From Cyanidioschyzon merolae (lineage: Eukaryota), in the NCBI GenBank assembly GCA_000091205.1, contig AP006494.2: a stretch of 64,000 nucleotides of DNA, one strand, 5' to 3'. Shown in pieces: positions 1 through 63,100 of the stretch (the stretch's first letter is position 1; each line of letters starts with the position of its first letter). Position numbers and translations under genes: made by a program. The notes beneath the pieces were generated by a model. It made no database searches and had not been told where the DNA came from. It was given only the letters and a program-made list of their open reading frames with translations.

Positions 1-2
1 CA

Positions 3-1877: not shown

Positions 1878-2097
1878 GCCTTTAGCGCAGCCGCTGCGAA
1901 TGCTTGGCTGTCGAGTGCCAGCACCGTGGCGAAATCGTCGACACGAACCTGATCTAAAAGCGATAGGAAACGCCGTCTATCAACAGCATTCTTTCGAAAC
2001 AGCGCCTCGCTATAGACGACCGGTGATCACGACCTGGCAGGTAAGACCAAGCGCATGAGTGACCCCTGGGGACGCGTGAATGCACGTGTTCTTCAGT

Positions 2098-3231: not shown

Positions 3232-3306
3232 GAAATGAGCAACGAGTCGGGTGTGCTTCGAGGGCCCGTCTGTACACGGCTTTTATAGCGAACGCGCTGC
3301 GTAACT

Positions 3307-3518
3307 GCTAGGTCGCTAGGTCGCTAGGTTGCTAGGTCGCTAGGTCGCTAGGTCGCTAGGTCGCTAGGTCGCTAGGTCGCTAGGTCGCTAGATCGCTTGG
3401 TCGTTAGGTCGCTAGGTCGCTAGGTCGCTAGGTCGCTAGGTCGCTAGGTCGCTAGGTCGCTAGGTCGCTAGGTCGCTAGGTCGCTAGGTCGCTAGGTCGC
3501 TAGGTCGCTAGGTCGCTA
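3307..3518. repeat. Minisatellite (GCTAGGTC)n, about 26 units with a few point variants
   Basis: Direct reading: gctaggtcgctaggtc... with variants gctaggtt, gctagatc, gcttggtc, gttaggtc. Confidence 0.95.
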
Positions 3519-4762
3519 CCGTTTCTCCGACCTGAGACGTTACCAGAGGCCTGCGGCACGGGCCCGGCGCAGGCAGGCCCTTGCGCTGCGATGATCGAGC
3601 GCGCTGCGCACTGGATACCTCATGAGCAGCTAGCGTTCACGGTTGCATGGAGCGCGGGCTGCTTGGTATCGTGTCCGGTTTTGCCAAAGGCAAGACGGGT
3701 TTGAATCTCGAGGAATGTGGTCGTGCTTTTCGAGTGAGGTATGGTGGTCTGTTTTCTGAAAGTTTAGAGCACGTACGCTTTCAGTGGAGTCTAGATCGAT
3801 GCACCTAACGCACCAGGTAGAAGGAAGGCCTGCTTGCGTTGCTTCTCGTGAGGATCGGAAGCGCTTTGCGCACGTGTTTCAGCACTTGCAGGTATGCATG
3901 GGGAACGGTTCGTGGGAACGCGAAACTATTGAAGCCGCGAAAGACTGTGCACACTTTAGTTGTAGCGGTCGATGGTCAGGTGCGGAAACCTTGGGGTGCG
4001 TAGAAGGCGAGCGTTGCGCTCGCCGTTCTGCAGCGCAGAGGCTCGATCAGAAACGATCCGGTATCATAGTTGGGCACGTGCTTGCAGGGACATTGCTTAC
4101 CCAGACACGCTTTTCTAAAAATACGGTCTTGTCGTTACGTTTCCTGGTTCGAGCGGGCGCGTCACCAGGTGAGGTCCACAAAGCACCTCGCTAGCGCGCG
4201 CGTTGCGGACGAATCCCAGAGAAATCACAGCGGCAGTCCAGGACTTGTACGACGAATGCAGTATAAGGGCATCATTACGTGCGGGTTGGAAGCAGTTTAC
4301 GGAGGGATTTGTTGACTTTCGTCGGATCGGCGTTTGTGCCGGCCTTTGTGCCTCCCAATGAATCTTGCATATGGATTCGCTCTGGGTAGCGGCGAGGCGC
4401 CATTTTGCGCGTCAGCAGCTCTCTCTGTTGCGCTGATGTCGAGTCCGGTCTGGTGACTTTATTTGCTGGCGCATCAGGCATGGCGCTCGAGGCATCAGCG
4501 CATCGTTACGGGCATTGGCATCCACGCGTACGCTTCCCAGCGCTTGGGTGACAGATTCGATCGCGTGCGCTTCCACTAGTCAAGCACGTAAACGGTTCCC
4601 GCCTTCAAGCGATGAGACGACGGCATACAAAGCAGAGCCTGGAACGCCTACAACGCAGATCGCGGTGCTGCTTCGGATGCCGACGCTCGCTGCAGCGCGC
4701 ACGATGGATCGTCGAACGCAGCCGACGTTGCCGCCGGTGAAGTAGAACTGGATGCGTGTGTG

Positions 4763-4786
4763 GATGCATGCATGCATGCATGCATA
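4763..4786. repeat. (TGCA)n microsatellite
   Basis: gatgcatgcatgcatgcatgcatacg. Confidence 0.8.
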
Positions 4787-4886
4787 CGTGCGTCCCTGTT
4801 GATATGCGTGTCTAGATCGAAGCGCTCAGCGACAGCATCAGCTGCGATCGCGTGTTGCTCGAAGCGGCACTTTGGCTGGCAACGTG

Positions 4887-4923
4887 TCGCAGACACGCAG
4901 ACACGCAGACACGCAGACACGCA
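4887..4923. repeat. (CAGACACG)n x4 tandem repeat
   Basis: cgcagacacgcagacacgcagacacgcagacacgcatgg. Confidence 0.8.
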
Positions 4924-5057
4924 TGGATTGCAATGATGGCCCATGTCGCAACGGTGCGCAGTACGGATGCGGCAGCGTCGGCGGCCTGTAACGATCACGA
5001 ATGAGGCATCGGCATCCGCACAGCAGCAGGCGATGCCTCGATCCCGCTGCGCTGGGG

Positions 5058-5816
5058 TCATAGCGGAGGCTCGCTGGCTGCTGCTGTCGCCGATGCCGAT
5101 GTTGATGCCGATGCCTCATTCGAACCCAAGGCACAGTTGGTAGTCGCGGGCACCGACGCGCTATCCTGTCTGGCACCCGAGTTGCAGATCATCGCGTCCA
5201 GCTCCAGTAAGACGCCGTCCGCGTCATACACCTGGAACGGGCGATTGAAGGTGAAGCTGCAGCGATCTGAACCTGGTTCGTCTCCGTCGATATCGACTGC
5301 TGCATCCGGATCGGTGGCGATCAGCAGGAACGGCAGCCGAACAGCCGAATCGCCTTGTAGCGACGCGGAGCGCGGGCGCCCGCTGCTCGCCACCGCCGCA
5401 CCGCGCATATTGCGTTGGACAAGGCGCTCGAGCGCTCGTACAATTGTGCGGTATCGCTGGATCCGGCCGTCCTTGTCCCGCACACTCGAACTCAGACGGC
5501 TCAGTTCGTTCTCGAGGAGAGACTGCTCTCGTACGCTGGCGCGAGGTAGACCATGCCAGCGGACAGCGCGACGATCTTTGTGCACCACGCCGATAGCACA
5601 CAGCACATTCAGCGCATCGTAGACTCGACGGCGCACATTCTTCTCTTCACTCGCCGGATCACGCAACGCTACGCCATTGTTTCCCTGCAGCAGTTCGGCG
5701 ACCAGCTCATCCGCGACCTCATTGTAGGTGGTCTCGCCTTTCTGCTCGACTTTGTGGCAAATACGAACGGCAAAGTGACGGAGGCCTTTTTCCTCACGGG
5801 GCCGCCCGGACCTCAT
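5058..5816 (-). CDS. DP: Transcription factor DP (E2F dimerisation partner), DNA-binding winged-helix plus dimerisation region
   Basis: GLRHFAVRICHKVEQKGETTYNEVADELVAELL...KNVRRRVYDALNVLCAIGVVHKDRRAVRWHGLP aligns closely with the human TFDP1 DNA-binding domain. The listed ORF start at 6068 is GTG. The first in-frame ATG is at 5814-5816, checked as cat on the plus strand. Confidence 0.8.
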   Translation of the reverse strand: MRSGRPREEKGLRHFAVRICHKVEQKGETTYNEVADELVAELLQGNNGVALRDPASEEKNVRRRVYDALNVLCAIGVVHKDRRAVRWHGLPRASVREQSLLENELSRLSSSVRDKDGRIQRYRTIVRALERLVQRNMRGAAVASSGRPRSASLQGDSAVRLPFLLIATDPDAAVDIDGDEPGSDRCSFTFNRPFQVYDADGVLLELDAMICNSGARQDSASVPATTNCALGSNEASASTSASATAAASEPPL

Positions 5817-7142
5817 CCAAGAGCTGAACTCGGGAGCGCAGTATTCAGCGCGCCCGGAAAAAAATTGGTCGACACACAGACCACGAACGCTGCCTTGACA
5901 CCGGGAGCGTTGTGCACTCGTTTGTCGTCCCGTCACCCGCGTGATGTGCGGGTTCACGTTCGCTAGTGTCGACTCAAAGACCCGAGCTGGATACTGGATC
6001 CTGAAGTCTGGACAGCGTGTTGCGTCTGGTGCGGGGTCCTCGGTAGGTGCAACCTTGCGCGAGGTCACCGGTGACCACGTGCGCTGTCCTCGTCAGTTGC
6101 AGCAGGCCGATAGTCCTCGACTCTCCAGGTCCAGCTGGAATGGCGCAAACTACCGATGCTGGGAACTACGGAGTTCTCGTTCCACAAACTTGATGCCGAG
6201 TGTCTGCAAATTCCGGTACGTTGTCAGGCGGTACTCGAAGTCGTGCTCACTTCCGTGACGAGACTGCTGCACACAGGCGGCGTCACCAAGGTGCACGCCT
6301 GATGGAATTGTCTCGCGCGCTGCAGCACACTCACCTCAATAAACGTCTTGTTCCCCGTTCTGTGCTCAGCAGTTGATCAACGGAACGCCAGGTGTCGCCG
6401 ACCCTTCCCTTGCCCGTAGATGGAAACACCCGCTACAAGCGCCATCACAGGCGCGTGTTCGCAGATATTCCCTGATCATCGCTGAGAGCGCGCATCGGCA
6501 CGCGACGCCTCGGACTGGATTGCGCTTCCCGCGCAGTCGTCGAAAGCGGCGGCGGATGAGACGTGTGCCCGAATGGGTGCCGCGTGTGCCCGGCACCAGG
6601 GATGCGCAACGCGCGCCTGCACGGACTGGATCAGAGGCGGCTGGGGCACGGACGTGGACATCGGCCCTAACTGTACATTGTGGATCAAAAAGGTCAGCGT
6701 GCGTGCATGAGCATGGTGCGCGCTGTCCGAAAAGCGAGTCGCCCACAGGCGGATCAGAGAAGCGACAATGGCATCAAAGATCCAAACCGAACATAACTGT
6801 ATGTTGTAGGGCGAAACAGTCAGAGACCCTGATCGCTGTAGACACGACGATCTCACAGCAGCGATGGACGTCACGCGGCTGGTGCCAAGCGCCCGGACTG
6901 CCGATGCAGATGCGATCGCAGTCCGTCACGTGACAAACGCCCCGCATTCGGCCGCGCGTCGACGCTGACCCTTCTGGCATCGCTACACCTCAGAAGGGAC
7001 AGGTATTCCGCTCGAGTGCCGCTGTACGCTAGGTCCGAGTGTATTGCGAAGCGGATATCCGTTGAGCTTTAGGCGACCTGCACCACGACTCGCGTAACGA
7101 TTGCGTGACGTCCTGACCCAGTAAAGAGCAGGCGCGCTCGTC

Positions 7143-7889
7143 ATGACAGAGAAAGCGTCGAAGAGGCAGAGCATCGCCGAAGCGCTGTTCGAACGGCGCC
7201 CGAAAAACTTTGGGATTGGTCAGAGTATCCAACCAAAGCGCGATCTTTCACGTTTTGTGCGCTGGCCGCGTTATGTTCGCCTCCAGCGACAGCGGAAAAT
7301 CCTTCTTCAGAGGCTGAAGGTACCGCCGGCGATTGCCCAGTTCCAGAAAACTGCGGACAAGAACTTGACGGACTCGCTGTTCCGTCTACTAGAACGTTAC
7401 CGGCCTGAGGAGAAAGTCGCCAAGCGACAACGCTTACAACAAGCCGCGGAGCGTGGTGAGACGAAACCTGACACCCCCAAGCCTATTTTCGTGAAGCACG
7501 GCGTCAACCATGTAACCGACTTGATCGAACAGAAAAAAGCCAAGCTCGTGATCATCGCGCACGACGTCGATCCAATCGAATTGGTCATGTGGATGCCAGC
7601 ACTCTGCCGCAAACTCGACATCCCCTACGTCATCGTGAAGGGCAAGGCGCGTCTGGGCGCACTGGTGCACTTGAAAACGGCGACGTGTCTGGCCGTCACC
7701 GGTGTCCACGACAGAGACCGCGCGGAGCTCTCGAAAATCATCGAAGTGTGCAAAATGCGCTTTAATGACCGATACGAAGAGATTCGAAGGCAATGGGGTG
7801 GTGGTGTGCTCGGAATCAAAAGTACCCACAAGTTAGAGAAACGACGGCGGGCGCTAGCCATCGAGGAAGCGAAACGCGCCCAGGCGTGA
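7143..7889 (+). CDS. RPL7A: 60S ribosomal protein L7a (eL8)
   Basis: Full-length colinear match to eL8: FERRPKNFGIGQSIQPKRDLSRFVRWPRYVRLQRQR...LVIIAHDVDPIELVMWMPALCRKLDIPYVIVKGKARLG...NDRYEEIRRQWGG. ATG start, no interruption. Confidence 0.95.
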   Translation: MTEKASKRQSIAEALFERRPKNFGIGQSIQPKRDLSRFVRWPRYVRLQRQRKILLQRLKVPPAIAQFQKTADKNLTDSLFRLLERYRPEEKVAKRQRLQQAAERGETKPDTPKPIFVKHGVNHVTDLIEQKKAKLVIIAHDVDPIELVMWMPALCRKLDIPYVIVKGKARLGALVHLKTATCLAVTGVHDRDRAELSKIIEVCKMRFNDRYEEIRRQWGGGVLGIKSTHKLEKRRRALAIEEAKRAQA

Positions 7890-25500: not shown

Positions 25501-25865
25501 CGCAGCACTGCTGTTCCGGTGACGCAACCGCGCAATCCATGCATCTGCGGTATCGTGCAGGAGCCTCCTGCAACTCCACCGCGTCGCCATGCGTTCCTGT
25601 GCACACGGGTGCCGTACAAGACGGATATCGCAAAGAGCGATCTTCGCGTGGACGTCATGAAAACGGCGATTGATCTGTGCGCTTAAATCTGTGTCCAGAT
25701 GAACTGGAAATCGTCTCCATAACGAACATAGGTATCCACACCACAGCCTCTGGGTATGTTCCCGGTATGATCAACACTCGACTTGGCCGGCGTTTTATGC
25801 TACTACTTCCTTTTTCTCTCACTTGTTTTGGGGACCATGCAAGTTTGTCTCTCCTTTTCCTTCGG

Positions 25866-26123
25866 CTATGCTTTCGGCATGCGAAGCGTGTTCATGGCAG
25901 CGTCCAAGTCACGATTTCGTCGCTTGCGGCTAGTTTCAGCACGATGCATGCCCGGTCGCAAGTTATGAACTACGCATCGAATGCAATATACATCTCGTTT
26001 GTATACAGAGCCAATGCGAACTGCGCAGCGGTGACACTTGTTCGTGTTCAGGTGTTCGCATACGCCCAACGCATTGCATCCCCTTTCGAGCGCTACCCCA
26101 CGGCACGTGACTGCTTGCTTCAA
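25866..26123 (-). pseudogene. C-terminal fragment of a TnpB/Fanzor-type RuvC nuclease: zinc ribbon CxxC-x15-CxxC followed by the RuvC-III motif
   Basis: Translated by hand from the minus strand: ...NTNKCHRCAVRIGSVYKRDVYCIRCVVHNLRPGMHRAETSRKRRNRDLDAAMNTLRMPKA*. The C-x2-C...C-x2-C then RDxDAAxN order is the TnpB/Cas12 C-terminal arrangement. The upstream part is absent or decayed. Confidence 0.55.
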
Positions 26124-27115
26124 TGCCTAATACACGCCCTCGATTGGTACACGGGACTCGCCTCGATGCCCTCATCCGTTGGCGCCTTCGCTGCCGCTCA
26201 CGACCATCAGATCCTTCTTCCCCGCGATTTTCTCGCTGAGTTCTCGATCTGGTGCACACGCTTGCGCATGCTGTCTCATTCGATGGAGGATTTGGAGAAC
26301 ACTTTGTCGTCCGTGATGAAACAAGTACCAGAAAGGAATTCGAGTCAAGTTATCTCGATCTGTCTACGCTTACCTCGTACAAAGCTGTGACGCACACTCC
26401 ACAGCGAGCAATCGTTTTTATGACCAATGTCCGAATCCAAGACCCTTTTCCATGCTAACAGAAACAACGCGAGCCTTTGAATGCATCGCACTTGAAGGAT
26501 ATCATGCCGCCGCCGAATGCCATCTAATCGATACCCGCAAGTACATGGCGATATACATTTCGTTTGGAATCGATTTTTCGACATTTTCAGTGAACACTCC
26601 AAATGAGATTGAGAAAAAGACGTCTAGCGACGTCTTCTCGTATTACCCGTCCATACAGTGAAACGAAATGCTCTGCCAAGGTGCTTTTCCAATCGAATCC
26701 TCGACGAATGCGCGACTTGCGCTTGCTACAATTAAAGAAAAGAGAGACATGAAGGCTTGAGCTTATGAATAGGGCCATGATATCGGTTGTTTTACGAACT
26801 CTTGTTCTAGAGCATCGATAACCACCTTGATGCCAATGCTGGAACCAAGTCCGGCTGCAAATGGAATAAAGAGCCACTCCGGAAACATGACATGGGATCC
26901 TTTACCCATCTACGAATCCGTATGCCCCTAGTGCAACATTTCAAACGTCCATGCTGTATATCTGAAAACCTCTCGGGGAATAACTCTCAGGACAGGAAAA
27001 CGGCATGCACTTCAGTATCCCATTTGCATCCGGCAAGAACGTAGCGGCAACAGGGAGTTTAGAAGAAGCTCAAGGCGGCGACCGACGCTGCCGGCGCCTT
27101 TATCGCTCGGGTATC

Positions 27116-40280: not shown

Positions 40281-42668
40281 CCGACGATGCATATCGTAGC
40301 GCGTTTTACACGTGCTGTGCTCTGATAGCACTCGCGAAAACATGCTGTCGACGAGAACTCGGCAAACCAAGGCCTCCCGGTGGATACCGCGTGCGTCACA
40401 GAAACATGTCGCAAAAGAATATGTGCTACAGAGGCATCGTCGGAGCAAGCTAACATCCATTCGTGGACACGACGTTGTGATGTCCTCAAAGACAATGGAT
40501 ACTTCGATCAGGGAGTACCTGGAGGCGCTACGATGCGGTATATACCTCGCTGCATGCGTCACTGGGGGGCGCCTTGGAACGTCACAGCACTGCTGGCGAC
40601 TGGTGCAAACACGACCGCCTCCTGTGTGCGTGTTTGTTTGTGGTGGCTTCCATATCATCTAGCTTCGTTTCGTGCTTGAGCCGGAGAGCCCAGACGAAAG
40701 CGTTTGCTCCTGGATGTGGCCCCAGACTAAGAGGCAGACGCGAATCTCGGCAGACGCTGGCCCCTGCATCTCCATTTGGAGCGCCTGCTGGTACCAGCGT
40801 AGGAGCAAGTCCTTGCACCATGTTGCGGGCACAATTGCTCAACGTCGGTATCGGAGCATGCCGCACAGCTACCTCGTGCCGATACCTTTCAGGTCAATAA
40901 AGCGAAGCCTTCCACCTCGGTGGGGCAGCTGAGGAAGCCAGTCGGAGGTCGTCGCAAGCGGCGATGACGACGACAACTGTGCCGCCAGTCACTTGGCATC
41001 CACCTTGCTACTGAATTCAGCATCTATTCCCTCCAGGACGTTGACTCTGGGACTCCCTGAAATATAGCAGTATCGATGGGAGAACGATGGCCTGTTCGCT
41101 GCATACACGCAGCAATGACGAACGCGGAAGTATCGGATTAATGAGAAGGATCTCCAGTCATGGAGGAATAGACACGGCGGGAATCGTACGACGCTCGGAA
41201 GCAGGCTTATGAGCCGCTGTGGGTCCAGAGCGTCGCTACCCTCTTGAGAACGTAAAATGGAGCACTGAATCGTTTGCTATGTACCTGAATGTCGAATGCT
41301 TTCCGAGCTCGTTTTATATATACGGCCTCGACACTTGATACGCAGGAGGAAGAAGCGCTTACGCATTCAAACACAGATATAGGATCTTCTTCCGTGTTTT
41401 CGTGGTGACTCCATTGACTCGTGGACGCTGGGATTCCTTAAGTTACTGGAATCAAGATCATGCATGACGCAATAGAGCAACGACACATAGAGTAAACGAT
41501 GTCATTATCCAATTTATACTTTGAATCCTTTAGGCTTCAATCTTTCGTCACGAACAGCATGTTCAAATCACGCATAATGCAACTGCTCTATTTTTTGGTT
41601 CAAGATAAGTTGTGAGCGCGGCAATCCGCTTCGGTGGACTGATGAGAAAAAAGCACGACGTTGTCGCTTTCCTAGATGTTTACAAGCTCGCTCCAATAGC
41701 TCACTGAAATCTTTACGCCCAACGATAACCCATGGCGTTCCAAAGACCAATCCTCCGCTTTTTGTTGCCATCGAAGAAACAGCATTCGGTAGCGGCATGG
41801 TGCCGCTTACGGCATATGCCTCCAGAGGCTCCCATCGCTTCTATAGGCATTGAAAAACTGTCTTGGTTATGGGCTCACCCTTTTACTCACCAAAGTGGTT
41901 GCTTGCATTTGAGTCGACGTCGCCGCTTTGCACGGAGCATTCGTAGACGGATCTGGACTTTTCGATTTGTACCGCAGACTGGATTATCCTCTTGATACTT
42001 GCTACATCAAGGACAGCCTCTTTTCCACACACACTTTACTAAATAAAAAGCCTTTCCTTGCGCGTGCAGCAGACAGCGTCTTCGCCTAGTTCATCGTTCA
42101 GAAGAAAAACCCCGGATCGTGGGGTACTGCACCAAGCGTGGAAACGGAGAAGGGTATCCAACGGAGCCGTCTGTCCGGCCAAGGGCATATACAGCGAAGT
42201 GAAATAAGCATTCAGGCGCTTTAGGGCGTCTCTCGGAGAACGGCTGGTGATGGATCTATATGGTTACCCCTTACCAGCGTCAAGTTTCACCGCTTCACAG
42301 CGCACACGCGGGCTGTTTATAAAGAAGATGAAAAGCGAAGTGAAATGCGTCGATCACTGTAGTCGCCTGTGCACAAAACACTTGAACAACAACAGCAGGC
42401 AGCGAGATCGGCTCTTGAACGCTGTTATCAGCATCCTTCGTCTGCTAACACAAGAATAGACCAGAAAACAGAGATCGACCTATGGATAGCCAGAGATATG
42501 AGAGAAGCAACCCCCAGCAATCTCGTAAAAGCACGCAAAGACTCACTTCGGTAAAATCAGCAAAAGACACAAGCCTTGTCCTCTGAACATCAGCGTTCAT
42601 TTGCTGCACCAGGTGCAGCCGCTACCCAAGTAGCTCATGAACATTACCATCATCATGATCATCACCAT

Positions 42669-47328: not shown

Positions 47329-48264
47329 ATGGGCACTGGCGGTGGGAACTGGTCAAAAAGTCTCCGTCACTTGGCCACAGGTGAAAGCGAGCTAGCGCGA
47401 ATTTGCAGTCGAGAGGATCATTCTGCAGCAATGAGCGTTCAGGTCTACCGTTGTCTGCAGAACTCCAAAGAAGCATCGGATGCGTGGCAGCGCTTTAAGA
47501 CGGAGCTTGCCGGAGGGCCTCCTATGGACTTGGGCGCCTGGGCGCGAATCCTCCTGGCAGCAAAAAAGGTACCCACTCGCTACCGTAACTGGCGGAGGGT
47601 TCAAGAGAACCTCAGGCTGAGTTTAGAGGACTTGTATCAGTGGGAGCGTGCCAAGCAAATCGTTCACGAGCGGGTGAACACCAGCTTTCAGAGCGCAGAT
47701 AAAAGTCATCAGGAGCTGCTGCAGAAGCTGCGGCAACTGGTCGAACCCATGCTCCCAGCCGGAGCAAGGGCACCGAACCGCGACTGGCGGTATGTCGGTT
47801 TCCAGGGTGATGATCCAGGCACAGACTTTCGCGGAATGGGCATCTTCGCGCTTCATCAACTTATATACTTTGCAGAAACCCGACCCCGCACTGTCCAGCG
47901 TATCCTCAGTGAGGCAAACGAGGAACGCTGGAGTGATGTTTCGGAGCACACAACCAGCACAGGATCATCGATGCCGCAACTAAAGCGCTACTACCCGTTC
48001 GCGGTCACTGGGATTCACGTCAGTGCCTTTGTAGCTCGACTTGTGCAACACGGTGCGCTCATGACAGCGTGGATTGGTGAAAGCTCAGATACTATCCTCC
48101 GTAAGATTAATGACCTGTACTGTGACACTTTCATTTTGTTTCATGAGCTTTGGCGCAAAGGGCCTGAACGTAGCATCATGGAGTTTCAGCAGGTATTCCG
48201 CGAATGCTGTGCTCAAGTCGAGCGACAGATCCAGCTTGGCGTGTTTCTTCCGCATGCACCATAG
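47329..48264 (+). CDS. ELMO-domain-containing protein (ELMOD-like)
   Basis: NRDWRYVGFQGDDPGTDFRGMGIFALHQLIYF matches the ELMO-domain core (W..GFQG..P.TDFRG.G). ATG confirmed at 47329. Confidence 0.7.
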   Translation: MGTGGGNWSKSLRHLATGESELARICSREDHSAAMSVQVYRCLQNSKEASDAWQRFKTELAGGPPMDLGAWARILLAAKKVPTRYRNWRRVQENLRLSLEDLYQWERAKQIVHERVNTSFQSADKSHQELLQKLRQLVEPMLPAGARAPNRDWRYVGFQGDDPGTDFRGMGIFALHQLIYFAETRPRTVQRILSEANEERWSDVSEHTTSTGSSMPQLKRYYPFAVTGIHVSAFVARLVQHGALMTAWIGESSDTILRKINDLYCDTFILFHELWRKGPERSIMEFQQVFRECCAQVERQIQLGVFLPHAP

Positions 48265-49179
48265 CGGACCAGCGTTCAAAGTTTCGGGTGCACTTTGGAT
48301 CGAAGATGTCACGGTCGCCTTTGTTGATTGCGCCGGAGGCACAGAGTTGAAGCCGCTCCAGCAACGCCAAGACGAGTCCGCAGCACATGCAGCCCGCGGT
48401 GAGCACCTGGTACGATAGTACGACAAGGCAGTAAAACCACAGAGCCAGCAAGAGGCTGGACGCGAGGAGCACTACCAGAGCGTCTCGACACGTGCAGAGG
48501 TCCCAGTGTCGACTGGGCTGTAGTAGTGAACGGCTGAGGCCTTGGCACAAGTGTCGCCAACGCGCCCATAGGAAAGCAAAGCGTTTCCGCAGCGTTGCGC
48601 TGCGACGCTCGGGGGCTTCCGCTGCTTCCTCATCACGCTGCATGCCGTCCGCAAGGTCAACTGTTTCCAACTGTTTCCACACTACAAACGTTGTCCTGGT
48701 TGAACAGTCCGCACCTGATACTGCCCGTGCACCGTCTGCGGCGAGTGCGACGGGAGCGCACGCGCTGAGCCTTCCAGAGGCGACTCGTGCGTCTTTATAC
48801 TAGTAAAGTCTTGAAGTCCACAAGAGGAGAACGGCCGCAGTGGCTGTTTCTGCGGCCTTGCTTTCCTGTCCGGTTCGTCGTGGCGAACGCACCAAACGTC
48901 CGCAGAGCGGATAGCAGAGTGCTGGCAAATGAGCGACGTAGTGGCTAACCTGCGAAGATGTGTCGTTTTGGCTAGCGCCTGGTTGCCACGCGGGATATCC
49001 ATCCATGACAGAATCGGGTGCAACAGGTCCACATGACGAAGACGAGCGTATAAGCTCAGGTTTGGACCTTTTCCTATTGTCGTGGACACTGGCATTTGCG
49101 GGTTTTTTACGGCTGCTTCCTTTACCTCCCTCTTATCACCTGCTATCCGTACTCTGGTCTATCCTGTCTACTCCATACT

Positions 49180-49806
49180 GTAGTCAGCAGTTGAAGGATG
49201 TAGATGGCAGCATTGAAGTCTCGATTTCACTGTTTCCTGTTATTGTCGATGGTTTCCTCGTAAAAACGGTCGTTGAAAAATATACATCGAATGCAACTTT
49301 CATCTTCTTGATAGACAGACTCAGTGCACACTGCGCAGCGGTGACACCTGACTGTTTTGCGGTGTTCATGGCTGTCCAGGACGCCAAATCCTCCGAGTGC
49401 CGCGTTGAAGTCTCTGACTGTTTGCTTCATCGATGGGTGCATATGCCGTGAGGGAACCATAAGCCCAGCCTCAAGGCTCTCCTCCGTTTTCGCCCCAGGA
49501 GCGGTACTCAGCGATCACGAGCTTGCTCTGGGTGATGCCGTCTGCGAGTACGCGGTACACTGCAAGCGCAAGCGCATGCTGTTCCATTCGAACGAGGGTT
49601 TGTCGAGCAAGAAGTTTTCTATGATGCATGAAGTATCGGAAGGAAGACCCGGACTGGAGAACAGGTCGGGAAATTTCGATCCGTCTACGCGTCCTTGTGC
49701 AAAGCGGTGACGCACACTGCAGCGGAGATAATCGCAGCGATGACTCCGGTCCGAGTCCGAGACGCTTTACCACAGAAACAGAAGAGACGGAATTCTTTTG
49801 GAGCAT
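49180..49806 (-). pseudogene. C-terminal half of a TnpB/Fanzor-type RuvC nuclease, inactivated by an in-frame TGA and a frameshift. Contains a RuvC-II-like block, a zinc ribbon and the RuvC-III motif.
   Basis: Minus-strand translation: ...ITQSKLVIAEYRSW (RuvC-II-like, Glu retained), a frameshift, then ...FNAALGGFGVLDSHEHRKTVRCHRCAVCTESVYQEDESCIRCIFFNDRFYEETIDNNRKQ*NRDFNAAIYILQLL. The C-x2-C-x15-C-x2-C ribbon and the NRDFNAAI motif are separated by a TGA. It shares DNA-level homology with the 25.9-kb fragment, for example catcgaatgcaa...actgcgcagcggtgacac. Confidence 0.5.
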
Positions 49807-50831
49807 ATCCCGTGGGAGACATCATAGGGCTGTCGAATACGGGTCAGTTGGTACTCATATAGAGGGAATGATTTGACTTTCGGACGGAGTCGATTATTTG
49901 ACAAGTTCAGTGAACTTTTGGCATGAGCTCGTGATGAAATCGTGTAAGTCGGATTCTGCGTGGTCAGCGCTGTTCCGCGAATTGCTCCGCTCACGACTTG
50001 TTTCGAAACAGCGAGCTCGATATGCTAAAGAATGCGCGATTTCAAGATCTATACGTGAGGTGTGGGGATGCACACAGGCTCGCACCTGAAAATGGATCAA
50101 GATATCGGTTACGCTGCGGACACATGAGCGAAGGCATCGCAAATGATCGTGATTTCGATGACGTAACAAATTCAAGCGGCAAAGTGTCGAACCTGCGACT
50201 CCGAAAAGACGTGCCAGCGCCTGGAAACTACGTACGAGCCCGTCATCGTCTCGTGCTGGACCTCGGGTGCCGGCGCTGGGTATCCACTGAACATTCTGGA
50301 AAATGTCTAGACAGGAACAGAGCGAGTGGTACAGGGTTCCCTTGTCATGTTTGACGGGTGTGGCGCGATACGAATAATGATGCCTATTGTGCGTTCTAGA
50401 TTTTCCAATAGATTCTTTTTTGCCCTTGCAGGGATCGCAAACCCACCTGGCCCCAGGCGATCACTCGACGAGGTATGCTTGCCAGCGCCCAAGTTCCGAA
50501 CAGGCACTCCGGACTCCAAGAGAAATCCAAAACGACTCGTCAAAATAGCAAGAAACGCTGGTGAGTTACGTGGGCCTCGGCATATCCTTTGCGCAGCAGC
50601 CCAGGTGTAGACATCTGCGTACCAGAAGAACCATGCGGTTGAGGGATCCAGTGCTCTCCATCCGCCGAGGTCGCTTTCCGCTGTTCCATTCCGATGAATT
50701 GCATCATACGAGAGTGCACAAACTGCATTCGAGATGCGAGGCCTCGATTCAGCATTAGACGCAGTGATGCAGACTCGACAGAAACTCTCTGCTTCGTGAC
50801 CCAGCCCGTTTAAAATTTGAGGCATCCCCTG

Positions 50832-52490
50832 TCACAGACGCAGTCTCTTTAGGGGTTCCGCGCGCTTCCGCGGTCCACTGCGGAAATTCCTGGCGATACG
50901 CTTCCGCTTGGGACGCTTTTCGACTGGCTTATTCAACTCTTCTGGACCTGCTGGTCTCAGGTCATCCGTCGCGGACTGAGCATTCGCCATTTCGGGAGCC
51001 AGCACCTGCCATAATCCATCATCTTTCAGCATATAATCGGGAATGTGCCCCAGATGTGCCGCCAGCCGCTTCCGCACCAGCGGACGATCATGGCTGAGCA
51101 CTTCCAAATCCACCCGATCGCCTTGGCGGGCAGCCAGCAGAGCATCCCGGAAAGCCCGCGAGCGAAGCATCTCATCGCGAAGAGCCTGGACGCGTGCTTC
51201 CCGTACAGCCAGGTCTGTGCAGGCACAGAGTGCATCTTCGACTCGGTAACGAAATGTTTCCATCGTTTCCTTTCGAACTGCCAAAAGGCGGGGCTGCCCT
51301 TGCATCGACAACCGGGCATGCTCCGTAAAAAATCGTTCTATTCGCTGAGATTCATCGTCGTTGGTTACGAGCGTGACCACTTTGCCCGCACGGCCCGCTC
51401 TTCCGGTTCGTCCAGAGCGATGCAAGAAAACTTCGATATTCTTGGGCGCGGTAAAGTGGATCACCACATCCACCGATCGAAAATCAAGACCACGCGACGC
51501 TGAGTAGCCAGTCGATTTCAACGTTGTCGCTTCATCCGATGTTACGAGAATGTCGAATATACCAGCGTCGAACTGCTGAAGGCAATGCTGGCGCGACGTG
51601 ACCGGCAAGTCTGCATTCAGCACCGCGCATCGGATCCCAAAGCGATCCAGAAAGAGCTTCACGCGATAGGCCTCAAGCACGCTGTCTACGAACACGAGAA
51701 TGCGATCCCGCAGAATGCGTAATCGAAGAACCACGTAGAGCCATGCGAAGCGTTCATCCAGACCAGATAATCGACTGACCCAGTACTGTACATTGCTTTT
51801 GTTGCCAGAGGGGTCTGCATCCCAGCTGGCCTCTATGCGACAGGCTTCTGGTTGATGCAGTGCCAAAGCACGCAGCGCTTCTACCTCCTCGTCCAGTGTG
51901 GCGCTTAGCAACACACCTTGAGCATTTGTCGGTATTTTTCTTACAACGTCGTGGACTTGAGTGGCGCTCGACGCAAACGACAAGACGAGGTCAGCTTCAT
52001 CGATTACCAGCAGCACGACATTCCTTGCCCGCTCTGTGGTTAGGGATTGCGCAAGTCCAGCTGGCGTTCCTACGCAGACACTCGCATCCGTCCAGGTATC
52101 GATTAGGGCCTTGTTGCTGAAGGCTCCGGTTACCACACAGCAGTGCAGCGGCAGGTTTTCCGTTAGTGACACAAAAGTTCGACCAAGTTGCAGCGCCAGA
52201 TCTTGGCTGGGCACCAGCACGATCGCGCGAGTGCTTTCGCACCAGGCGCCTCTCGCGTTCTCCTCGTCGTAGATCTGCAACAGTAGGTGAACCAATGGCA
52301 GTGCATAGGCCCCAGTTTTACCCGATCCAGTGGGAGCATTCACTAGAACGTCTTTCCCGGAAAGCACGGCGGGAATCACGGCTTCCTGTACGGGTGCTGG
52401 TGTACGCCAGCGCAGTTTGCGTAGAACGGCTTCCACCACACGCGCGTCGAGCCCCAGCTGTGGGAACGTGCGGGTCCGGGAACAACCCAT
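50832..52490 (-). CDS. DEAD-box ATP-dependent RNA helicase (DDX56/Dbp9-like)
   Basis: Motif Q and motif I (APTGSGKT), VIDEADLV (DEAD), SAT, and HRSGRTGRAGRAG (motif VI). The listed start 52502 is GTG; the first ATG is 52488-52490. Confidence 0.9.
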   Translation of the reverse strand: MGCSRTRTFPQLGLDARVVEAVLRKLRWRTPAPVQEAVIPAVLSGKDVLVNAPTGSGKTGAYALPLVHLLLQIYDEENARGAWCESTRAIVLVPSQDLALQLGRTFVSLTENLPLHCCVVTGAFSNKALIDTWTDASVCVGTPAGLAQSLTTERARNVVLLVIDEADLVLSFASSATQVHDVVRKIPTNAQGVLLSATLDEEVEALRALALHQPEACRIEASWDADPSGNKSNVQYWVSRLSGLDERFAWLYVVLRLRILRDRILVFVDSVLEAYRVKLFLDRFGIRCAVLNADLPVTSRQHCLQQFDAGIFDILVTSDEATTLKSTGYSASRGLDFRSVDVVIHFTAPKNIEVFLHRSGRTGRAGRAGKVVTLVTNDDESQRIERFFTEHARLSMQGQPRLLAVRKETMETFRYRVEDALCACTDLAVREARVQALRDEMLRSRAFRDALLAARQGDRVDLEVLSHDRPLVRKRLAAHLGHIPDYMLKDDGLWQVLAPEMANAQSATDDLRPAGPEELNKPVEKRPKRKRIARNFRSGPRKRAEPLKRLRL

Positions 52491-52501
52491 AATCGCCGAC
52501 A

Positions 52502-55000
52502 CCGAACACTTTCCAAAAGTCGAACGACGCCAGCGGTGTACAGTAGTGGCGAGAAGCCCGCTCTGGACAAGAAGTCTTCAGCTGAGGTGCAGACGCCTCC
52601 CCGTCTTTACGGACCGGCCACCCACCACTGATTCCAATGTTTTCTCATATAGTTCCATTTTGAGTGATTGTCCAATAAAGTTCACTCTTGTCTACTCTGG
52701 AGGTCTCGTCTCCAGCACCGCACATTTCCTTATATTGATAGCGGCATTAAAGTCTCTGTTCACAAACTCCATATGTTTCGTGCCATCACTGGTTGTACTC
52801 ACTAGTGCAAGTAGCCATCGAACTTTCGCTCTCCCTTCCATTTGCTCTTCCGTCAGCGCTCCGTACTTTTGTATATCTTCAGGACTCGTCTGGCACTTTT
52901 CCATCTCCAGTCTCTCTGAAGTGTACAACCCAGTTCATGGTGTGTATAGGACGTTCGAAACTCATCTGTCGGTATCGTAACAAAACGCCTTGCGCACGCC
53001 TTGTACGTTCTTGTCGTTGGAGCTGGCGTAGTCCCTTTTTAGGTCATCCATCGCCCTGGTCCGTACGCTACTACGAGCCTCTGACCCTCATCCCTATTCG
53101 CGGCGCTCAGCTGATTGAAAAAATTGGCGAATGCACGCTGCTTCCCACAACAAAGATTCATTCGCAAATGAGCCCACCGAGGCTTTGTATACTCCTCCCA
53201 CGGCGCATTCCAATGGGCAACACGAACTTCCATGAATTTCCGAAAAGCTTCAAAGTCGGCTCCTCGGCTGGTCACCTCGCTCAAAGCCCCAAGGTGATCC
53301 TTCATTCCTGAATTCCAAGACTCGATTTTCTTCCTCGCATTCATTATACAGGACTCTCGATAGTGTCTCGCTCCCGAGAGCCTCAACAGACGCATGTCTT
53401 TCTGACGCAAGTTACCATCAGTACCATTTTCCGCACGCTTCGGTGCTGCGATGGTAATGATATTCGTATTCCCAGGGTCCGCGCCAACGACAAAGTCGTT
53501 ATCCTGCACTTTCTGCATCGCAGGATCCGCCTCCTTCTTTTCTTCCTTTTTCACCGCGTCAAAGACAAGGTCGTCATCCTGCACTTTCTGTGTGGCAGGA
53601 TCCGCCACCTTGTTTTCTTCATGCTTCGCCGAGGGCAATATCGAAGACGGACCAGGACAATCTGTCTTCAACCGCCAGTAGTGTACACACTTGGATACCC
53701 CATCGGTTTTGATCAACCCAGTGGATATCTTTTGTTTGCTCACTTTGAGACGTTTGAAATCGAAGACGTTCTTCCAGTACGTCTCCCGCTTGTCACCGGT
53801 GAACTCTGTCTTCCATACATCAAACTCCGGACAGATCTCCTTCAAGATGCCGTAAAGGACGCCGGAATCGATGCTCACAAAATGTGACCGGATGTTGCAG
53901 ATTGGAACCACGTTGAAGCGCTTCCCCATTAGGACAGCCTTCCGACTCTCCCATTCATCACTTTTTCCTCACTCGGCTATATCTCCGCTTTGCATTCGAG
54001 TTCTCGGTCCAGGAACACGAAATAGCGCAGAATGAGGCGGTAGTGTCTTTCCTTACCTTTTTCAACTCTGATACCTTGTCTATTGGATTCGCCAGCCCCA
54101 AGACTGCAAGATGCTCTTTAATAGCCGCACGGATGACGGAATCCTCATTTGTGCTCCTGCGTGACGCCTTCTTGTCGACAAAGTCGATCTCATCTTCATG
54201 CTTGCGATCGTTCGTGATGCCATTGAAAATCGCCCATATCCCTTTGCCAGAGATACCAGGGTGAGTGCAAACACGGGGCGTATCATGAAACGTTCACGGT
54301 TCATAGTCGAATGGTTCTTCGGATTTGTGAGGCATTTCATGGCCCCATAGAAGCAAATACCCCAGTCACCCATGTATCGAGTACCGTCAAAGCGGAATTC
54401 GCGTAATTCCAGTGGAGGGCGTTCATGTGCTCATTTCTCCTTGACTTCTCCCCTGCGCCCAGCACCAGGTGGCGGATAAAGCTCCTGTTGAAAAACTCGT
54501 CCGCGACCTCGACTGTTTTGATGTCCGTCACGTCGCGATACATCTCTCTCGCTGAATGCATCAATCCTGACGACGACTTGACAATAATCTTGGAGTACGA
54601 GCCAACACGTTTTTGATAGCGTCTCGCAACTTTTCCCCGTAGGGATCCTTGATATGTCCAAGAAGGAAGGTTTTCACCACCATCTCGTTGTACAGGCGTC
54701 TTTCTTGCCGCCTTCGACGTAGGGCCTCCCCCTTTCGGTTCTTCTTCTCTTCCTTTTCTTCTGGACTCGGCACTGTTTTTTGTTTTTTTCTAGCAGCCGG
54801 CGACAGTGGGCCTCCAGGATCGTCGACTTGTTTTTTCATAACTTTTCTTTTATTAGTTTTTTCGAAAAAGAACGCTCTTTGAACGCTTCTGTTATATACT
54901 GCGAACAAACACATGAATACACTTGTTTGAGGTTTAAAAACACAAATGAACTGAGTAACTGTACTTTGCTACGACCCGAACGGAAATCCAACCTTTATAG
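52502..55000 (-). mobile_element. Copy 1 of an element of about 2.4 kb encoding a TnpB/Fanzor-like RuvC nuclease. The left boundary is approximate. The right, 3' end abuts the helicase start codon.
   Basis: It is homologous along its whole length to the copy at 60681-63100, at roughly 65-90% identity by eye. The 3' 190 bp after the nuclease stop, and the RuvC-III coding block, are the most conserved parts. Confidence 0.6.
52692..54839 (-). pseudogene. Fanzor/TnpB-like (OrfB_IS605 superfamily) RNA-guided-nuclease homologue. N-terminal basic NLS-like tract, Ruv[12 protein letters not shown], a degenerate RuvC-II/zinc-ribbon region, and RuvC-III NRDFNAAINI. Disrupted by at least 2 frameshifts and 1 in-frame stop.
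   Basis: N-terminus MKKQVDDPGGPLSPAARKKQKTVPSPEEKEEKKNRKGEALRRRRQERR, with the ATG at 54837-54839. Segment [19 protein letters not shown] matches the TnpB RuvC-I pattern VGIDLGITN. RTYKACARRFVTIPTDEFRTSYTH matches the YKA...V.P..TSQ.C linker, with the Cys residues lost. The C-terminus reads KHMEFVNRDFNAAINIRKCAV*. The consecutive ORF segments 54561-54839, 54337-54564, 54080-54373, 53039-53929 and 52692-52928 lie in shifting frames. Confidence 0.65.
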
Positions 55001-56547: not shown

Positions 56548-58864
56548 AGAGCTTAAAAGGGCCACCGCCAAGAATTCTGCTGAGAGCTGTGTCCATCACA
56601 GTATACGAGAGCGCGACAGCGGATTCCGGTTTGATGTATCGCCAATTAGGTCCATTGAGACTGAATTTCTGGTAGTCAGATGCTGGTGCCAGTGGTGTCA
56701 GAAGGAGCAAACACACGCTGCAGCGTCGCAGATGATCTCTCTGTGTACGATGCTGGGGCCGTGCGGTAGCGCACCTCGGCGAAGAGGCGGTCTTCATTGC
56801 CAGGAGAAGTTGGCAAGCCTGGACCAAAACATGCCGCTAGATTCCAGAGCTCTTTGCTGATGAGCAAGGATCTCTGCATGGTGGGCAAGGATTCTGAGCT
56901 CCAGCGCGCTTGTGCACCACGGAATGGGGTAGGCTGCCATCCATGCGGACGCACGAGGCCGTGCACATTACTCAATGGTATCGTGTGGAGTGCATAGGTC
57001 GATCGTCGTTCTGTAGAATCGTAGATACCGGCTTATCGCTGATTGGCATGGAGGAAATGCGTACGCTACCTGGTATGTGAAGCCCGAACGAAGGCTAGGG
57101 CGACGCCGTGTACATAGGGAACCAGGCAACTGGATTAAACCGCACCTCATTACCGGTACTACGTAGTTCGCGCGCTCGAGGTTCACCCGCTCTTCCCGTT
57201 CGGAAGTCGCGATCCGGGCTCTCTTAAACGAGAGCTTCTTTATGGAATGTTCGTGTTACCCTAGAAACGTACAGAAAACACTGAAACGCTATCGCCGGCA
57301 TTCCAGATTTTGACTTTTCACAGGATACGCTCTGTAAGCGAAAGCAGGAAGCATCTCCGAGCCAGAAAAGTTTTGCATGAAAATGGATTATCGAACGGGT
57401 TGCTATGTGCGTACTTTGCTATTTTCCGATCTTTCTTGGATGCGTAGCCTTGGCACTCGAAGTGCTGCAACAAGTACTTTAGCGGCCAGCCGTGCATTTA
57501 GGATTCTTGCTCGTCGATTCGGAGTTGCTCCATTAGCTCGATACTGCTCGAATTCGTTCCCTCACAAAATCCAGATGATTTGCGACACCTTCGAAATATG
57601 GCTCGGAAAATCACCGGTATCATTCTTTTATTCAGAAGTGCATTCCTCCATGCCTCTCCTTTTCGCATCTGCAACATACTGCTGTTATACGTCCTTCAAT
57701 TTTTCAATCTTTCTCTTCAAAGGAGATTTCTGGGCGCAGCAATACGCGCCGGTGGATGGACGACGAATAGTGCCTCATGATGGACCTTGCCGATTTCCCT
57801 ACGAGCTCACACTGAAGATCATTGAAACTGTCATGTCAAAAAAAGATTTCGGTTGAAAGACCAATCCTGCTCTTTTTAATGATATCGATTAAAACGGCAC
57901 TCATCAGTGGCTGCAAGTTGCCTCTCGCAGAGTTCTCCCCGAGAGACTCCAGTATCTTCAGGCTGTATGGGAAAGAGTCGTCGGTCCTGCGGTGAGTTAA
58001 TGTAGCTATCGCATACAATGGAGCGATCACCACTTTGGCACACCAAGGGAGCGTACAAAATCGAAACATATCGACTTGTTCACAAGCACGTGTTCTCCTT
58101 CCGGTACTTGTTTCATCGCGGCCAATATCGCGTCCCATGAATTCTCTGTGTAATGGGACCGCGAGCTTTTTTTGTGCATCGGACAGCGTACAAGCGAATG
58201 GGATCATTCAAAAGAAGACCACGATCGTAGGATGCAGCACCGGCCGCGGAAACAAAATTCCTTTTGGAGCACCGATTTCTGTACCTGTCAATAGTATGTA
58301 CTGAGCGATAAAGTGAGCATTCACGCGCGAAAGGGCGTCGCTTGGAAGAGCAGTAGGAGAAGGAAGTTTTGGAAGATGTATAAAAAACCTGACTACAGTC
58401 AAGAGCTACCGCTACGAACGGCACATAGAGGCTGTACACAACAAGAATAAAAGTTGTATTCAGTGCCTTGATTTAAACCTCGGTATGTGTGTGAAATAGC
58501 GGGGAAAAAGCCGGGTGCCGCCAAATCGAGACTTGAGCATTGCCATCAACATCCACTGACCGCTTCCAACAGAGTCACAGTGATGCGCGTGGCCGGCATA
58601 CGTAAAGCCAGGAATAAGAGCGAGGAAAGAGAACAAGCCAAATAACACACCCGCAATGGCTGGCTTCGATGACAAGTGCGAAGGCAGTCAAAAATGAGCG
58701 TGTGAGCTCTAGTTGAAAAATTTGCTCCAATTTATGTTGGCATGAGTATAGTTAGCATCCCATACGGTCCAGTCATTCAGTGCGAACGTACGTTTGCATC
58801 CCAGAGACCGTTTTCACGATAGCGTGCCCAGAGAACATCGAGTCCCATGTATGCATCCACCGCG

Positions 58865-60680: not shown

Positions 60681-63100
60681 CCGAACACCTTAAAAGTTAA
60701 ACGAGGCTGCAGTCGGCAGTACAGAAGTGGCTAAAGCCACCGAAACAAATTGTTCGCTGGCGAGGTGCAGACACCTCCCGGTCTTTTTTGGCCAGCGACC
60801 CACTCTAGCTTCCAATTTCGTTCCATATATGCTAGCCTTGACTCATTATGGGAAAAAAATCCTTCTTGTCCACTCTGCATTTCTGTTCTCCAGCACCGCA
60901 CATCTCCTTATATTGATAGCGGCGTAAAATCTCTGTTCACAAACTCCATCCGTTTCTTGTCATCATTCATTGAACAAACTAATGCAAGTAGGCCTCGGAC
61001 TTTCGCCCTCTTTTCCATTTGCTCTTCCGTCAGCGGTCCATACTTTGCTATATCTTCCGGAATCCGCAGGCAGTGTCCTATCTCGACCCGCAGGAGTCGA
61101 GATGGAAAACTCGTGGGGTGTATGGACCTTCGAGACACACGTAAAGGTATCGTCACGAAACGCCGTGCACACTCATTGTACGTTCTTGTCGTTGGGGCTG
61201 GCGTAGTCCCTTTTTTTTTCGGAACCCATCTCCATGCTCCGTATGCTACTACGGGCCTCTGACAGTCGTTCTTCTTCTAGGTGCTGAACTCTTCGAGAAA
61301 ATTCGTGAACGCCCACTGCCTACCACAGTACAGCCTCACACGCAAACGAGCCCACCGGGGATTTGGATACATTTCCACAGTTCCACCTAATGAGCAACGC
61401 GAACATACCATAAATTTCCGAATAGCTTCAAACCCGGCTCTGCGGCTCGTCACCTCGATCGTAGCTTTCCGATGCTATTTCATCCTGCACTCCATGTCTC
61501 GAATTCATCATCGTATTCAAGATTCCCGCTTCTCCGTAGTATCTCGCTTTCGAGAACGTAAAAAGATGCATGCCTTTCTGACGTAAGTTGCCGTCAGTGT
61601 CAACATCCCCATGCTTGGGTACTACGATGGTTATGATATTCGTGTTCCAGGCATTAAGGCCGACGAAAAAGTCGTTTTCGTGGATATTATAAGTCCCATG
61701 GCCCGCCTTCTCCTTCTCGTGCTTCGACAAGGGGATACCGAAAACGGGATAGGACGACCTGCCTGCAAACGCGGATGGTGTACACATATGTCGCCATCAT
61801 TGTAACCGATTGTCCAAGTGAGAACCATGTTTTGGCCAGTTTGAGACGCTTAAAATCGAAGATATTCTTCCATTAGGTGTCCCGGTCGTCGTCGGTGACA
61901 TCTTTGTTGCTTACATCGAGCTCTGGCGAGATCTCTTTCATGAAGGCGTTAAGGACTCTGGAGTCGATACTCACAAAATATGACTTGAACTCGCATCACC
62001 AAACGGCAATAAAGCGCATCAAGAGAAGCAATTCAACGTCGTTTCTCCGACGGTCATTTTTTCCTCAGCTCCATTTCGGCCATGCCTTCGAGTTCTCTGC
62101 GCAAAATCATGAAGTAGTGCAGAATGGGGTGATAAAATCTCTCTTCGTTTTCTCTGACATCTGAGAATTTTTCACTTGGGTTGACGAGCCCCAAGCGTTA
62201 GCGATGCTTCTGAATAGTCGCGCGGAATACTGAAGCCTCATCATATCTGCAGCGTGATTTCGTCTTTTCTACAAATCTGATCTGCTGTTCATGCTGGCGA
62301 CATTTCTAGTCCGCATAGATGATTGCCGAAATCCCTTCAGGAAACAGGCCCGGGTACAGCGCAAAGACGGCCCGTATTACACAACATCCGAGGTATGCGT
62401 TCTTATGGTTCCTCGGATTCGGGAGGCACCTCATGGCCCTGTATTCGTAAATATTAGCGTCATCCCTGTGTCCAGCACCATTGGTGCGGTATTTGACGTA
62501 ATTATTGAGAAAGGCATGCATTCGGTCATTTCTCCTCGATGTTTCCCATCGCAAACAATCAGGTGGTAAATGAAAGTCGTTTTGAAAAATTCATCAAGGA
62601 AACATCATTTTTGCCATGTGCGTTACGCCGCGATGCAGCTCGTTCTCAAAAGGCGTCGGTCCTAAAGAAAAGTAGCAAACATACGTGGCGCACGAATCGA
62701 CACTGTTTCTGTTAGCGCCACGCAACATTCAGTCGTACGGACCATTGATATGTTGGAAAAGAGGGGATTCCGCCACCATCCCGTCGTACACACGCCATTC
62801 GTGCAGCCATCGACGAAAGGCCTCCCCGATTAGCTTGTACTTCTTTTCTTGATCGTCTTCGCTAGGCACTGTTTGTTGTTTTCTTCCAACAATTGGCAGC
62901 ACCGTTAATCCTCAACCCTTTATTTCCACATGAAAATGTCTACTTTTTTTTTGGGGAAACCACATTGAACGCCTCTGCGTTGAGCGGCGAACATCAGTTG
63001 AATACCCCTACTTGAGGTTTGAATCACGACAGAAGCCAAAACTATACATTGCGACGATTTGATTGCAAGTATAGCTGGCCCCGATAGAGCAATAGCTCCA
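60681..63100 (-). mobile_element. Copy 2 of the Fanzor/TnpB-like element, more degenerate than copy 1. The RuvC-I Asp is replaced (FVGLNAWNTNIITIV) and there is a 1-nt deletion in RuvC-III (MEFVNRDFTPLSI*).
   Basis: ORF fragments at 60908-61156, 61428-61787 and 62306-62554 are homologous to copy-1 segments. AMRCLPNPRNHKNAYLG matches copy-1 AMKCLTNPKNHSTMN. The N-terminal region and the 3' non-coding region are also conserved with copy 1. It lies about 170 bp upstream of the BVMO ATG, in the same orientation. Confidence 0.55.

Follow-up and report, generated by a model that had tools for sequence, protein, structure and literature searches.

The locus and its neighbours

The DNA analysed here, a stretch of 64 kb that we call the window, is nuclear DNA of Cyanidioschyzon merolae 10D, and five annotated proteins of this strain are encoded in it residue for residue. 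These five exact matches also identify the host of the relic described below as a eukaryote, in keeping with the restriction of Fanzors to eukaryotes and eukaryotic viruses. The accessions of the five genes are consecutive, so no gene is annotated in strain 10D at the relic, which lies between the genes for the ELMO protein and the helicase. The genes and the relics are as follows.

BAM80898: PP2A
47329-48264, BAM80899: ELMO protein
50832-52490, BAM80900: DDX56-like helicase
BAM80901: rhomboid protein
BAM80902: monooxygenase
49059-50304, minus strand: the full relic studied here, third of the Fanzor-type relics as counted in the original prediction (family HMM; tblastx with the paralogues, reaching 50304; nhmmer)
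25688-27097, minus strand: paralogous relic with many stops, known from the original prediction as the 25.9-kb fragment (family HMM, 58.9 bits; nhmmer)
41150-42636, plus strand: paralogous relic, the most decayed of the four (family HMM; nhmmer)
57359-58748, plus strand: paralogous relic (family HMM, 37.3 bits; nhmmer)
52692-54000 and 60873-62016, minus strand: copies 1 and 2 of the original prediction, both decayed CMe-1A Fanzor1 elements (match to the CMe-1 protein, Bao & Jurka 2013 supplement)

A contig from a JGI metagenome (sample 3300005573), here called L001, represents a second haplotype or strain and is 99.05% identical to positions 43040-63926 of the window. The divergence between the two is very uneven: each kilobase of 50-54 kb, non-coding DNA included, has 1-4 differences, and 62-63 kb alone has 61.

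The relic had been placed at 49180-49806. It is indeed found there, and all amino acid strings quoted for it occur on the minus strand at the positions given, but its homology with the paralogues is much wider, from about 49059 to about 50304. Matches to the family HMM cover 49059-49457 (48.1 bits) and 49486-49635, and an nhmmer match extends over 49001-50380. Protein sequence can be recognised in the C-terminal half (49059-49641), whereas in the 0.65 kb upstream the only sign of the relic is homology to the three paralogous relics. Upstream of 49641, neither the region of the RuvC-I Asp, nor IETDGV, nor any other N-terminal homology gave a profile match in any of the four copies; intact relatives carry the RuvC-I motif GxDPGRxN. 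Transposon termini and target-site duplications could not be defined because the copies are decayed and the identity profile of the four-copy DNA alignment is too flat.

The relic does lie downstream of the helicase gene, as had been noted, but about 0.5-1 kb beyond the helicase stop codon at 50832 rather than immediately 3′ of it. The helicase gene has Fanzor relics on both sides, as predicted, and the two belong to different families. This arrangement can be explained by the high local density of relics (six in 64 kb); it is dense local debris and indicates no functional link with the helicase.

Between the helicase gene and the relic there is an ORF of 172 amino acids (50307-50825), on the same strand as the relic and unannotated in strain 10D. 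We considered it as the N-terminus of the element and rejected it: it resembles neither the members of the Fanzor families nor the other relic copies, and comparison with everything else in the window gave no similarity.

Family identity and motifs of the relic

Taken alone, the relic had no relevant match in Pfam, among PDB sequences (phmmer) or in a word-indexed protein search; the Pfam scan returned just a sub-threshold match to DUF6671. In an exhaustive search of 1.84 billion proteins, a profile (A4) made from exact fragments of the four window copies detected 80 of them at E<=1e-3, the best at E 9e-14. Decayed copies should yield short ORF fragments, and most of the matches were of this kind; one was instead an intact protein of 376 amino acids, P0184, which has full-length relatives (P0201-P0207) of up to 551 amino acids. 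The repaired translation of the relic aligned with P0184 across the frameshift (BLASTP, 68.6 bits, E 4e-18, 35% identity over 153 aa). An HMM of P0184 and its relatives gave 71.8 bits over 160 residues of the repaired relic, again collinear across the frameshift. In a raw six-frame search, the same HMM scored 48.1 bits on the relic (E 2.7e-16), 58.9 bits on the 25.9-kb paralogue, 37.3 on that at 58 kb and 15.1 on that at 42 kb. More distant full-length relatives (P0208 and P0210; 24-26% identity) are hypothetical proteins of the green alga Trebouxia sp., which points to a wider algal distribution of this lineage.

P0184 in turn scored 34.9 bits against PF07282 in Pfam (Cas12f1-like TNB, formerly OrfB_Zn_ribbon), above its cutoff of 26.3. 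Similarity to the superfamily thus runs in two steps, from the relic to the P0184 family and from this family to PF07282. Read from sequence, the family assignment is a chain of two links through metagenomic relatives. An AlphaFold model of P0184 (pLDDT 75.6, pTM 0.69) had as its best solved structures those of the Spizellomyces punctatus Fanzor, at E 1.4e-11 to 2.2e-10 over about 360 aligned columns. These were followed by Cas12o, the Parasitella Fanzor (PpFz), Cas12f and the ISFba1 TnpB, with E 1e-4 to 1e-6 for TnpB and Cas12f. The fold of a RuvC domain with a TNB was seen on the model of this intact relative alone.

The proposal that the relic is of the TnpB/Fanzor type was supported by the collinear 71.8-bit profile match, the PF07282 match and the Fanzor-like model of P0184. 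The profile alignment placed the motifs consistently and did not assign them to an unrelated zinc-ribbon protein. This consistent placement, together with the Fanzor match of P0184, identifies the relic as Fanzor1-type. From its N-terminal to its C-terminal side, the relic contains the following on the minus strand.

49504-49524: KLVIAEY, a beta-strand at the canonical RuvC-II position (family alignments), in the frame of the ORF 49806-49474
49461-49473: frameshift zone; the upstream frame runs through GENGGEP to a TGA (49473-49471), and the alignment restarts in the next frame at MVPSRHMH
49365-49367: Glu of SHEH, aligned to E274 of P0184, the nearly invariant alternative RuvC-II Glu of the family
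49335-49358: K-T-V-R-C-H-R-C, a degenerate [TS][TS]-x-x-C followed by the first knuckle CHRC (49346-49335) (alignments with paralogues and relatives)
49284-49295: CIRC, the second knuckle of the original prediction, in a variable linker
49251-49262: YEET, the degenerated second zinc knuckle (the HMM alignment pairs RvCekC with RFYEET)
49227-49229: TGA in frame, a nonsense mutation that replaces the codon for a conserved Arg, the first R of R-N-R-D (paralogue DNA, relatives)
49197-49226: NRDFNAAIYI, RuvC-III with the catalytic Asp kept, aligned to RnRDfnAainiL of the family profile
49143-49160: RPEYG and a TAG, at which the ancestral ORF ends; RPEYG corresponds to RPxYL, a C-terminal motif conserved in the family (family alignments)

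The ORF 49806-49474 ends with ADGITQSKLVIAEYRSWGENGGEP, followed by a TGA. The next frame reads GLMVPSRHMHPSMKQTVRDFNAALGGFGVLDSHEHRKTVRCHRCAVCTESVYQEDESCIRCIFFNDRFYEETIDNNRKQ and carries FNAALGGFGV, CHRC, CIRC and NRKQ. Past the TGA at 49229-49227 the relic continues as NRDFNAAIYILQLLTTVWSRQDRPEYG and closes at the TAG at 49145-49143. The coding sequence is therefore interrupted twice, by a single in-frame TGA and by a single frameshift that lies within 49473-49461, as the original prediction had it. Both the frameshift lesion and the TGA are also present in L001. The C-terminal RD motif characteristic of the superfamily (RDxNAAxNI) is represented by NRDFNAAIYI at 49226-49197. Another 'RDFNAA' further upstream (RDFNAALGGFGV) was considered as a RuvC-III-like motif and rejected as fortuitous; it aligns to AFKRHRxEGGvLDV of the family.

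KLVIAEY had been read as a RuvC-II block. Its position agreed with this reading and its Glu did not: in the family alignment (A6) and the HMM alignment, intact relatives have (P)V-I-I-G-Y-G at this position, with the Glu aligned to the Tyr of G-Y-G, and the three paralogues have IVGYCT, IVGCST and LMVVSGS, all missing a Glu. These alignments mark the Glu of KLVIAEY as a private substitution and not an ancestral residue. In Fanzors with a rearranged catalytic site, the canonical RuvC-II Glu is replaced by Gly or Pro, and an alternative conserved Glu lies about 45 residues away (Jiang et al. 2023, PMC10530073). The same arrangement was found here. The Glu of SHEH in the relic (with VIAEY) lies 45 residues past the canonical RuvC-II position, and E274 in P0184 (with the V-I-I-G-Y-G of its family) lies 44 residues past it.

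Bao & Jurka described the signature D-X(125,275)-[TS][TS]-X-X-[C4 Zn finger]-X(5,50)-RD (PMC3627910). The relic has K-T-V-R-C for [TS][TS]-x-x-C, with one of the two [TS] positions kept, and its paralogues and relatives have TTVKC, TSVK or TTQKCHRC. A C4 zinc finger between [TS][TS] and RD is lacking in the relic and was present ancestrally, as judged from the CHRC...CxxC of intact relatives. The relic had been described as retaining the zinc ribbon, a description that does not hold: only the first CxxC (CHRC) is left. All intact relatives have the second knuckle as a CxxC about 8 residues before R-N-R-D, where the relic has YEET, and two paralogues have C-T-K-H and C-V-K-stop with the first Cys kept. 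CIRC lies in the linker, and only its final Cys has a semi-conserved counterpart in close relatives, the Cys of KRCVD. In these alignments the zinc ribbon of the relic is half lost.

Decay of the relic and alternative explanations

In the core of the relic, 11 differences from L001 were found in 661 bp (1.66%), and 8 of the 11 were non-synonymous in the conceptual frames. The five neighbouring genes had 13 differences in 6657 bp (0.20%), and non-genic DNA 1.30%. The relic diverges at a neutral rate. An intact ORF and signs of activity, as in a working Fanzor gene, were not seen; in their place are the TGA, the frameshift, the loss of a knuckle, the decay of the N-terminal half and neutral divergence.

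We consider it very probable that the locus is a long-dead Fanzor1-type pseudogene, left in intergenic DNA by an extinct family of transposable elements. Fanzors, which are the homologues of TnpB in eukaryotes, are omega-RNA-guided RuvC endonucleases of mobile elements (PMC10432273, PMC10530073). By analogy with the family, the ancestor of the relic would have been an active RNA-guided nuclease that travelled with a transposon. The canonical RuvC-II strand of the ancestral protein was of a glycine type without Glu, with the catalytic Glu relocated about 45 residues downstream. Its C-terminus ran from [TS][TS]-x-x-C through a C4 zinc ribbon to R-N-R-D-x-N-A-A-I-N-I. Since then this copy has undergone a nonsense mutation, CGA>TGA, and a frameshift; its second zinc knuckle has been lost and its N-terminal half has decayed. 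What is present now evolves neutrally and, on this reading, has no function. Deamination of CpG was considered as the cause of CGA>TGA and dropped, as the ratio of observed to expected CpG is about 1.1 everywhere.

The alternative that survives best, an improbable one nonetheless, is that the coding sequence is dead and the DNA has been co-opted, either as a regulatory or terminator region of the helicase or ELMO gene or as a non-coding RNA derived from an omega-RNA. The relic does lie between two convergent or tandem genes of a very compact genome, and four copies have been kept within 64 kb. These copies are, however, only about 52-57% identical in global DNA alignment, and the haplotype divergence of the relic is no lower than the non-genic average. 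A scan of 48-51 kb with Rfam gave no match, and no omega-RNA could be defined.

Slightly less probable still is that the relic is another, more decayed copy of CMe-1A. Bao & Jurka give one Fanzor family for C. merolae (PMC3627910), and its CMe-1A has about 150 copies that are about 80% identical to their consensus, some of them intact (Bao & Jurka 2013, PMC3627910). Copies 1 and 2 belong to this high-copy family, with members about 70-80% identical, and match the CMe-1 protein; the relic has no close similarity to that protein or to the CMe-1A consensus. Among PDB sequences, a HMMER search with the CMe-1A family profile gave no Fanzor match. The relic and CMe-1A have the NRDFNAAI motif in common and their families are distantly homologous: P0204 aligns with a CMe-1A copy, and the P0184-family HMM scores 33 bits on 52982-53560. 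However, the profile-profile alignment of the two families covers only 12 residues, the NRDFNAAI block. CMe-1-type proteins, moreover, have no zinc-knuckle cysteines (DEFRTSYTHHELG...; VDEFRTSYTHHELG...), in contrast to the CHRC...CxxC of the relic family, and the DNA of the relic matches only the other three old copies. DNA and profile comparisons thus agree with the earlier view of the relic, as a homologue of the 25.9-kb fragment from a subfamily other than that of copies 1 and 2.

Among the CMe-1-like proteins, P0001-P0120, P0211 and P0213 carry the precomputed Pfam accession PF26935.1, and P0001, P0005, P0009 and P0014 had no match in a copy of Pfam without PF26935.1. The CMe-1A copy at 52692-54000 keeps an ORF of 296 amino acids and diverges from L001 by only 0.32%, far less than the 1.30% average of non-genic DNA.

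That the relic is still functional, through read-through of the TGA, selenocysteine or reassignment of the stop codon combined with a programmed frameshift, is hardly credible. What might suggest it is that the TGA is in frame and directly precedes the motif conserved best, and that neither the alternative Glu nor the RuvC-III Asp has been lost. Nevertheless, the TGA codon aligns to a CGA (Arg) in the DNA of the 25.9-kb paralogue, and the residue is Arg in P0184 and in P0201-P0207, a conserved Arg of the family. TGA is also the genuine stop codon of the neighbouring PP2A and helicase ORFs, the products of which match the annotated proteins exactly. The locus is unannotated in strain 10D, its second zinc knuckle is lost, its N-terminal half is unrecognisable, and it diverges at a neutral rate, non-synonymous changes accounting for 8 of the 11. 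The suggestion to look for recoding of TGA in this organism thus found no basis.

It is just as implausible that the motifs match by chance or that the relic derives from an unrelated zinc-ribbon protein. Either might be suspected from the lack of a direct Pfam or PDB sequence match and from the fortuitous upstream 'RDFNAA' (aligned to AFKRHR). However, the 71.8-bit match over 160 residues includes the non-motif segments RM..R..Q.ALA.A and VP.K.MY, and among 1.84 billion proteins the profile of the window copies detects the family with E values as low as 9e-14.

The pseudogene is one of a group of four. All three paralogues carry stops and frameshifts, and the shared homology spans about 1.2-1.4 kb. 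The four copies together make up about 8% of the window, and no intact copy of the family was found among them. Their repaired translations are only 28-38% identical, which indicates that the zinc-ribbon family is old.

Significance and relation to known systems

The relic is unremarkable as a pseudogene, being of a known kind, and at most it documents a second, extinct Fanzor1 family of C. merolae. It explains some anonymous intergenic DNA of this alga, and its overall importance is small. There is a caution in it for motif reading: the apparent RuvC-II Glu and the apparent second CxxC were both lineage-specific accidents. An in-frame TGA beside a conserved motif did not call for a hypothesis of recoding.

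The extinct zinc-ribbon family may account for much of the anonymous intergenic DNA of C. merolae. The genome of this alga is famously compact. A wider reading, which we put forward tentatively and regard as rather doubtful, is that the four copies represent an undescribed, fully extinct second Fanzor1 lineage of C. merolae, one with a zinc ribbon, and that its nearest intact relatives, found among giant viruses of algae or on virus-like contigs (Tetraselmis virus 1; L002), reflect an ancient virus-mediated invasion. If this were true and the density in the window (about 8%) were typical, such remains would contribute substantially, and so far unnoticed, to the intergenic DNA.

The contig L002 (JGI 3300035702, Ga0399894_004485; 1-7757) is compact, has 55.7% GC and encodes P0203, an intact relative of the relic family with 551 amino acids. 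Its neighbours there are an RNA ligase, a 2H-SAK protein and a protein with a Peptidase_S74 domain. From its gene content, L002 may be a giant-virus or phage-like context. A scan of viral contigs with P0203 found no relative. A viral route of this Fanzor lineage into algae is possible but speculative; a possible tie of the relic family to the Fanzors of algal giant viruses is of modest evolutionary interest.

Among known systems, the relic family resembles Fanzor1 (SpuFz1, PDB 8GKH/9CEZ) in its RuvC-II strand without Glu, the Glu about 45 aa further on, [TS][TS]xxC, the zinc ribbon and RDxNAAxNI. Like Fanzor1, it is tied to repeated, transposon-like DNA, and its intact relative P0184 folds most like SpuFz. 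In contrast to Fanzor1, the relic is a pseudogene: a stop and a frameshift interrupt it, its second knuckle is lost and its RuvC-I is unrecognisable. Even its intact relatives are just 18-20% identical to SpuFz in sequence.

CMe-1A/CMe-1 (PMC3627910) comes from the same host and superfamily and also consists of scattered decayed copies, two of them in the window. It differs in having no knuckle cysteines, whereas the family of the relic was ancestrally zinc-ribbon-bearing and is much older.

The 'transposase' of Tetraselmis virus 1 (A0A2P0VNN9), a giant virus, is the nearest named relative of P0184 and its best viral match (37% identity; Foldseek E 1e-28, 355 aligned columns). This protein is viral and intact, with 693 aa, unlike the red-algal relics, and its tie to them is indirect, through P0184.

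Bacterial TnpB (IS200/IS605, IS607) and Cas12f have the same core of RuvC and zinc ribbon (TNB), and P0184 passes the PF07282 threshold. TnpB, however, has a Glu in the RuvC-II strand, where the relic family has Gly/Tyr with the Glu relocated, and the relic lies on a eukaryotic chromosome.
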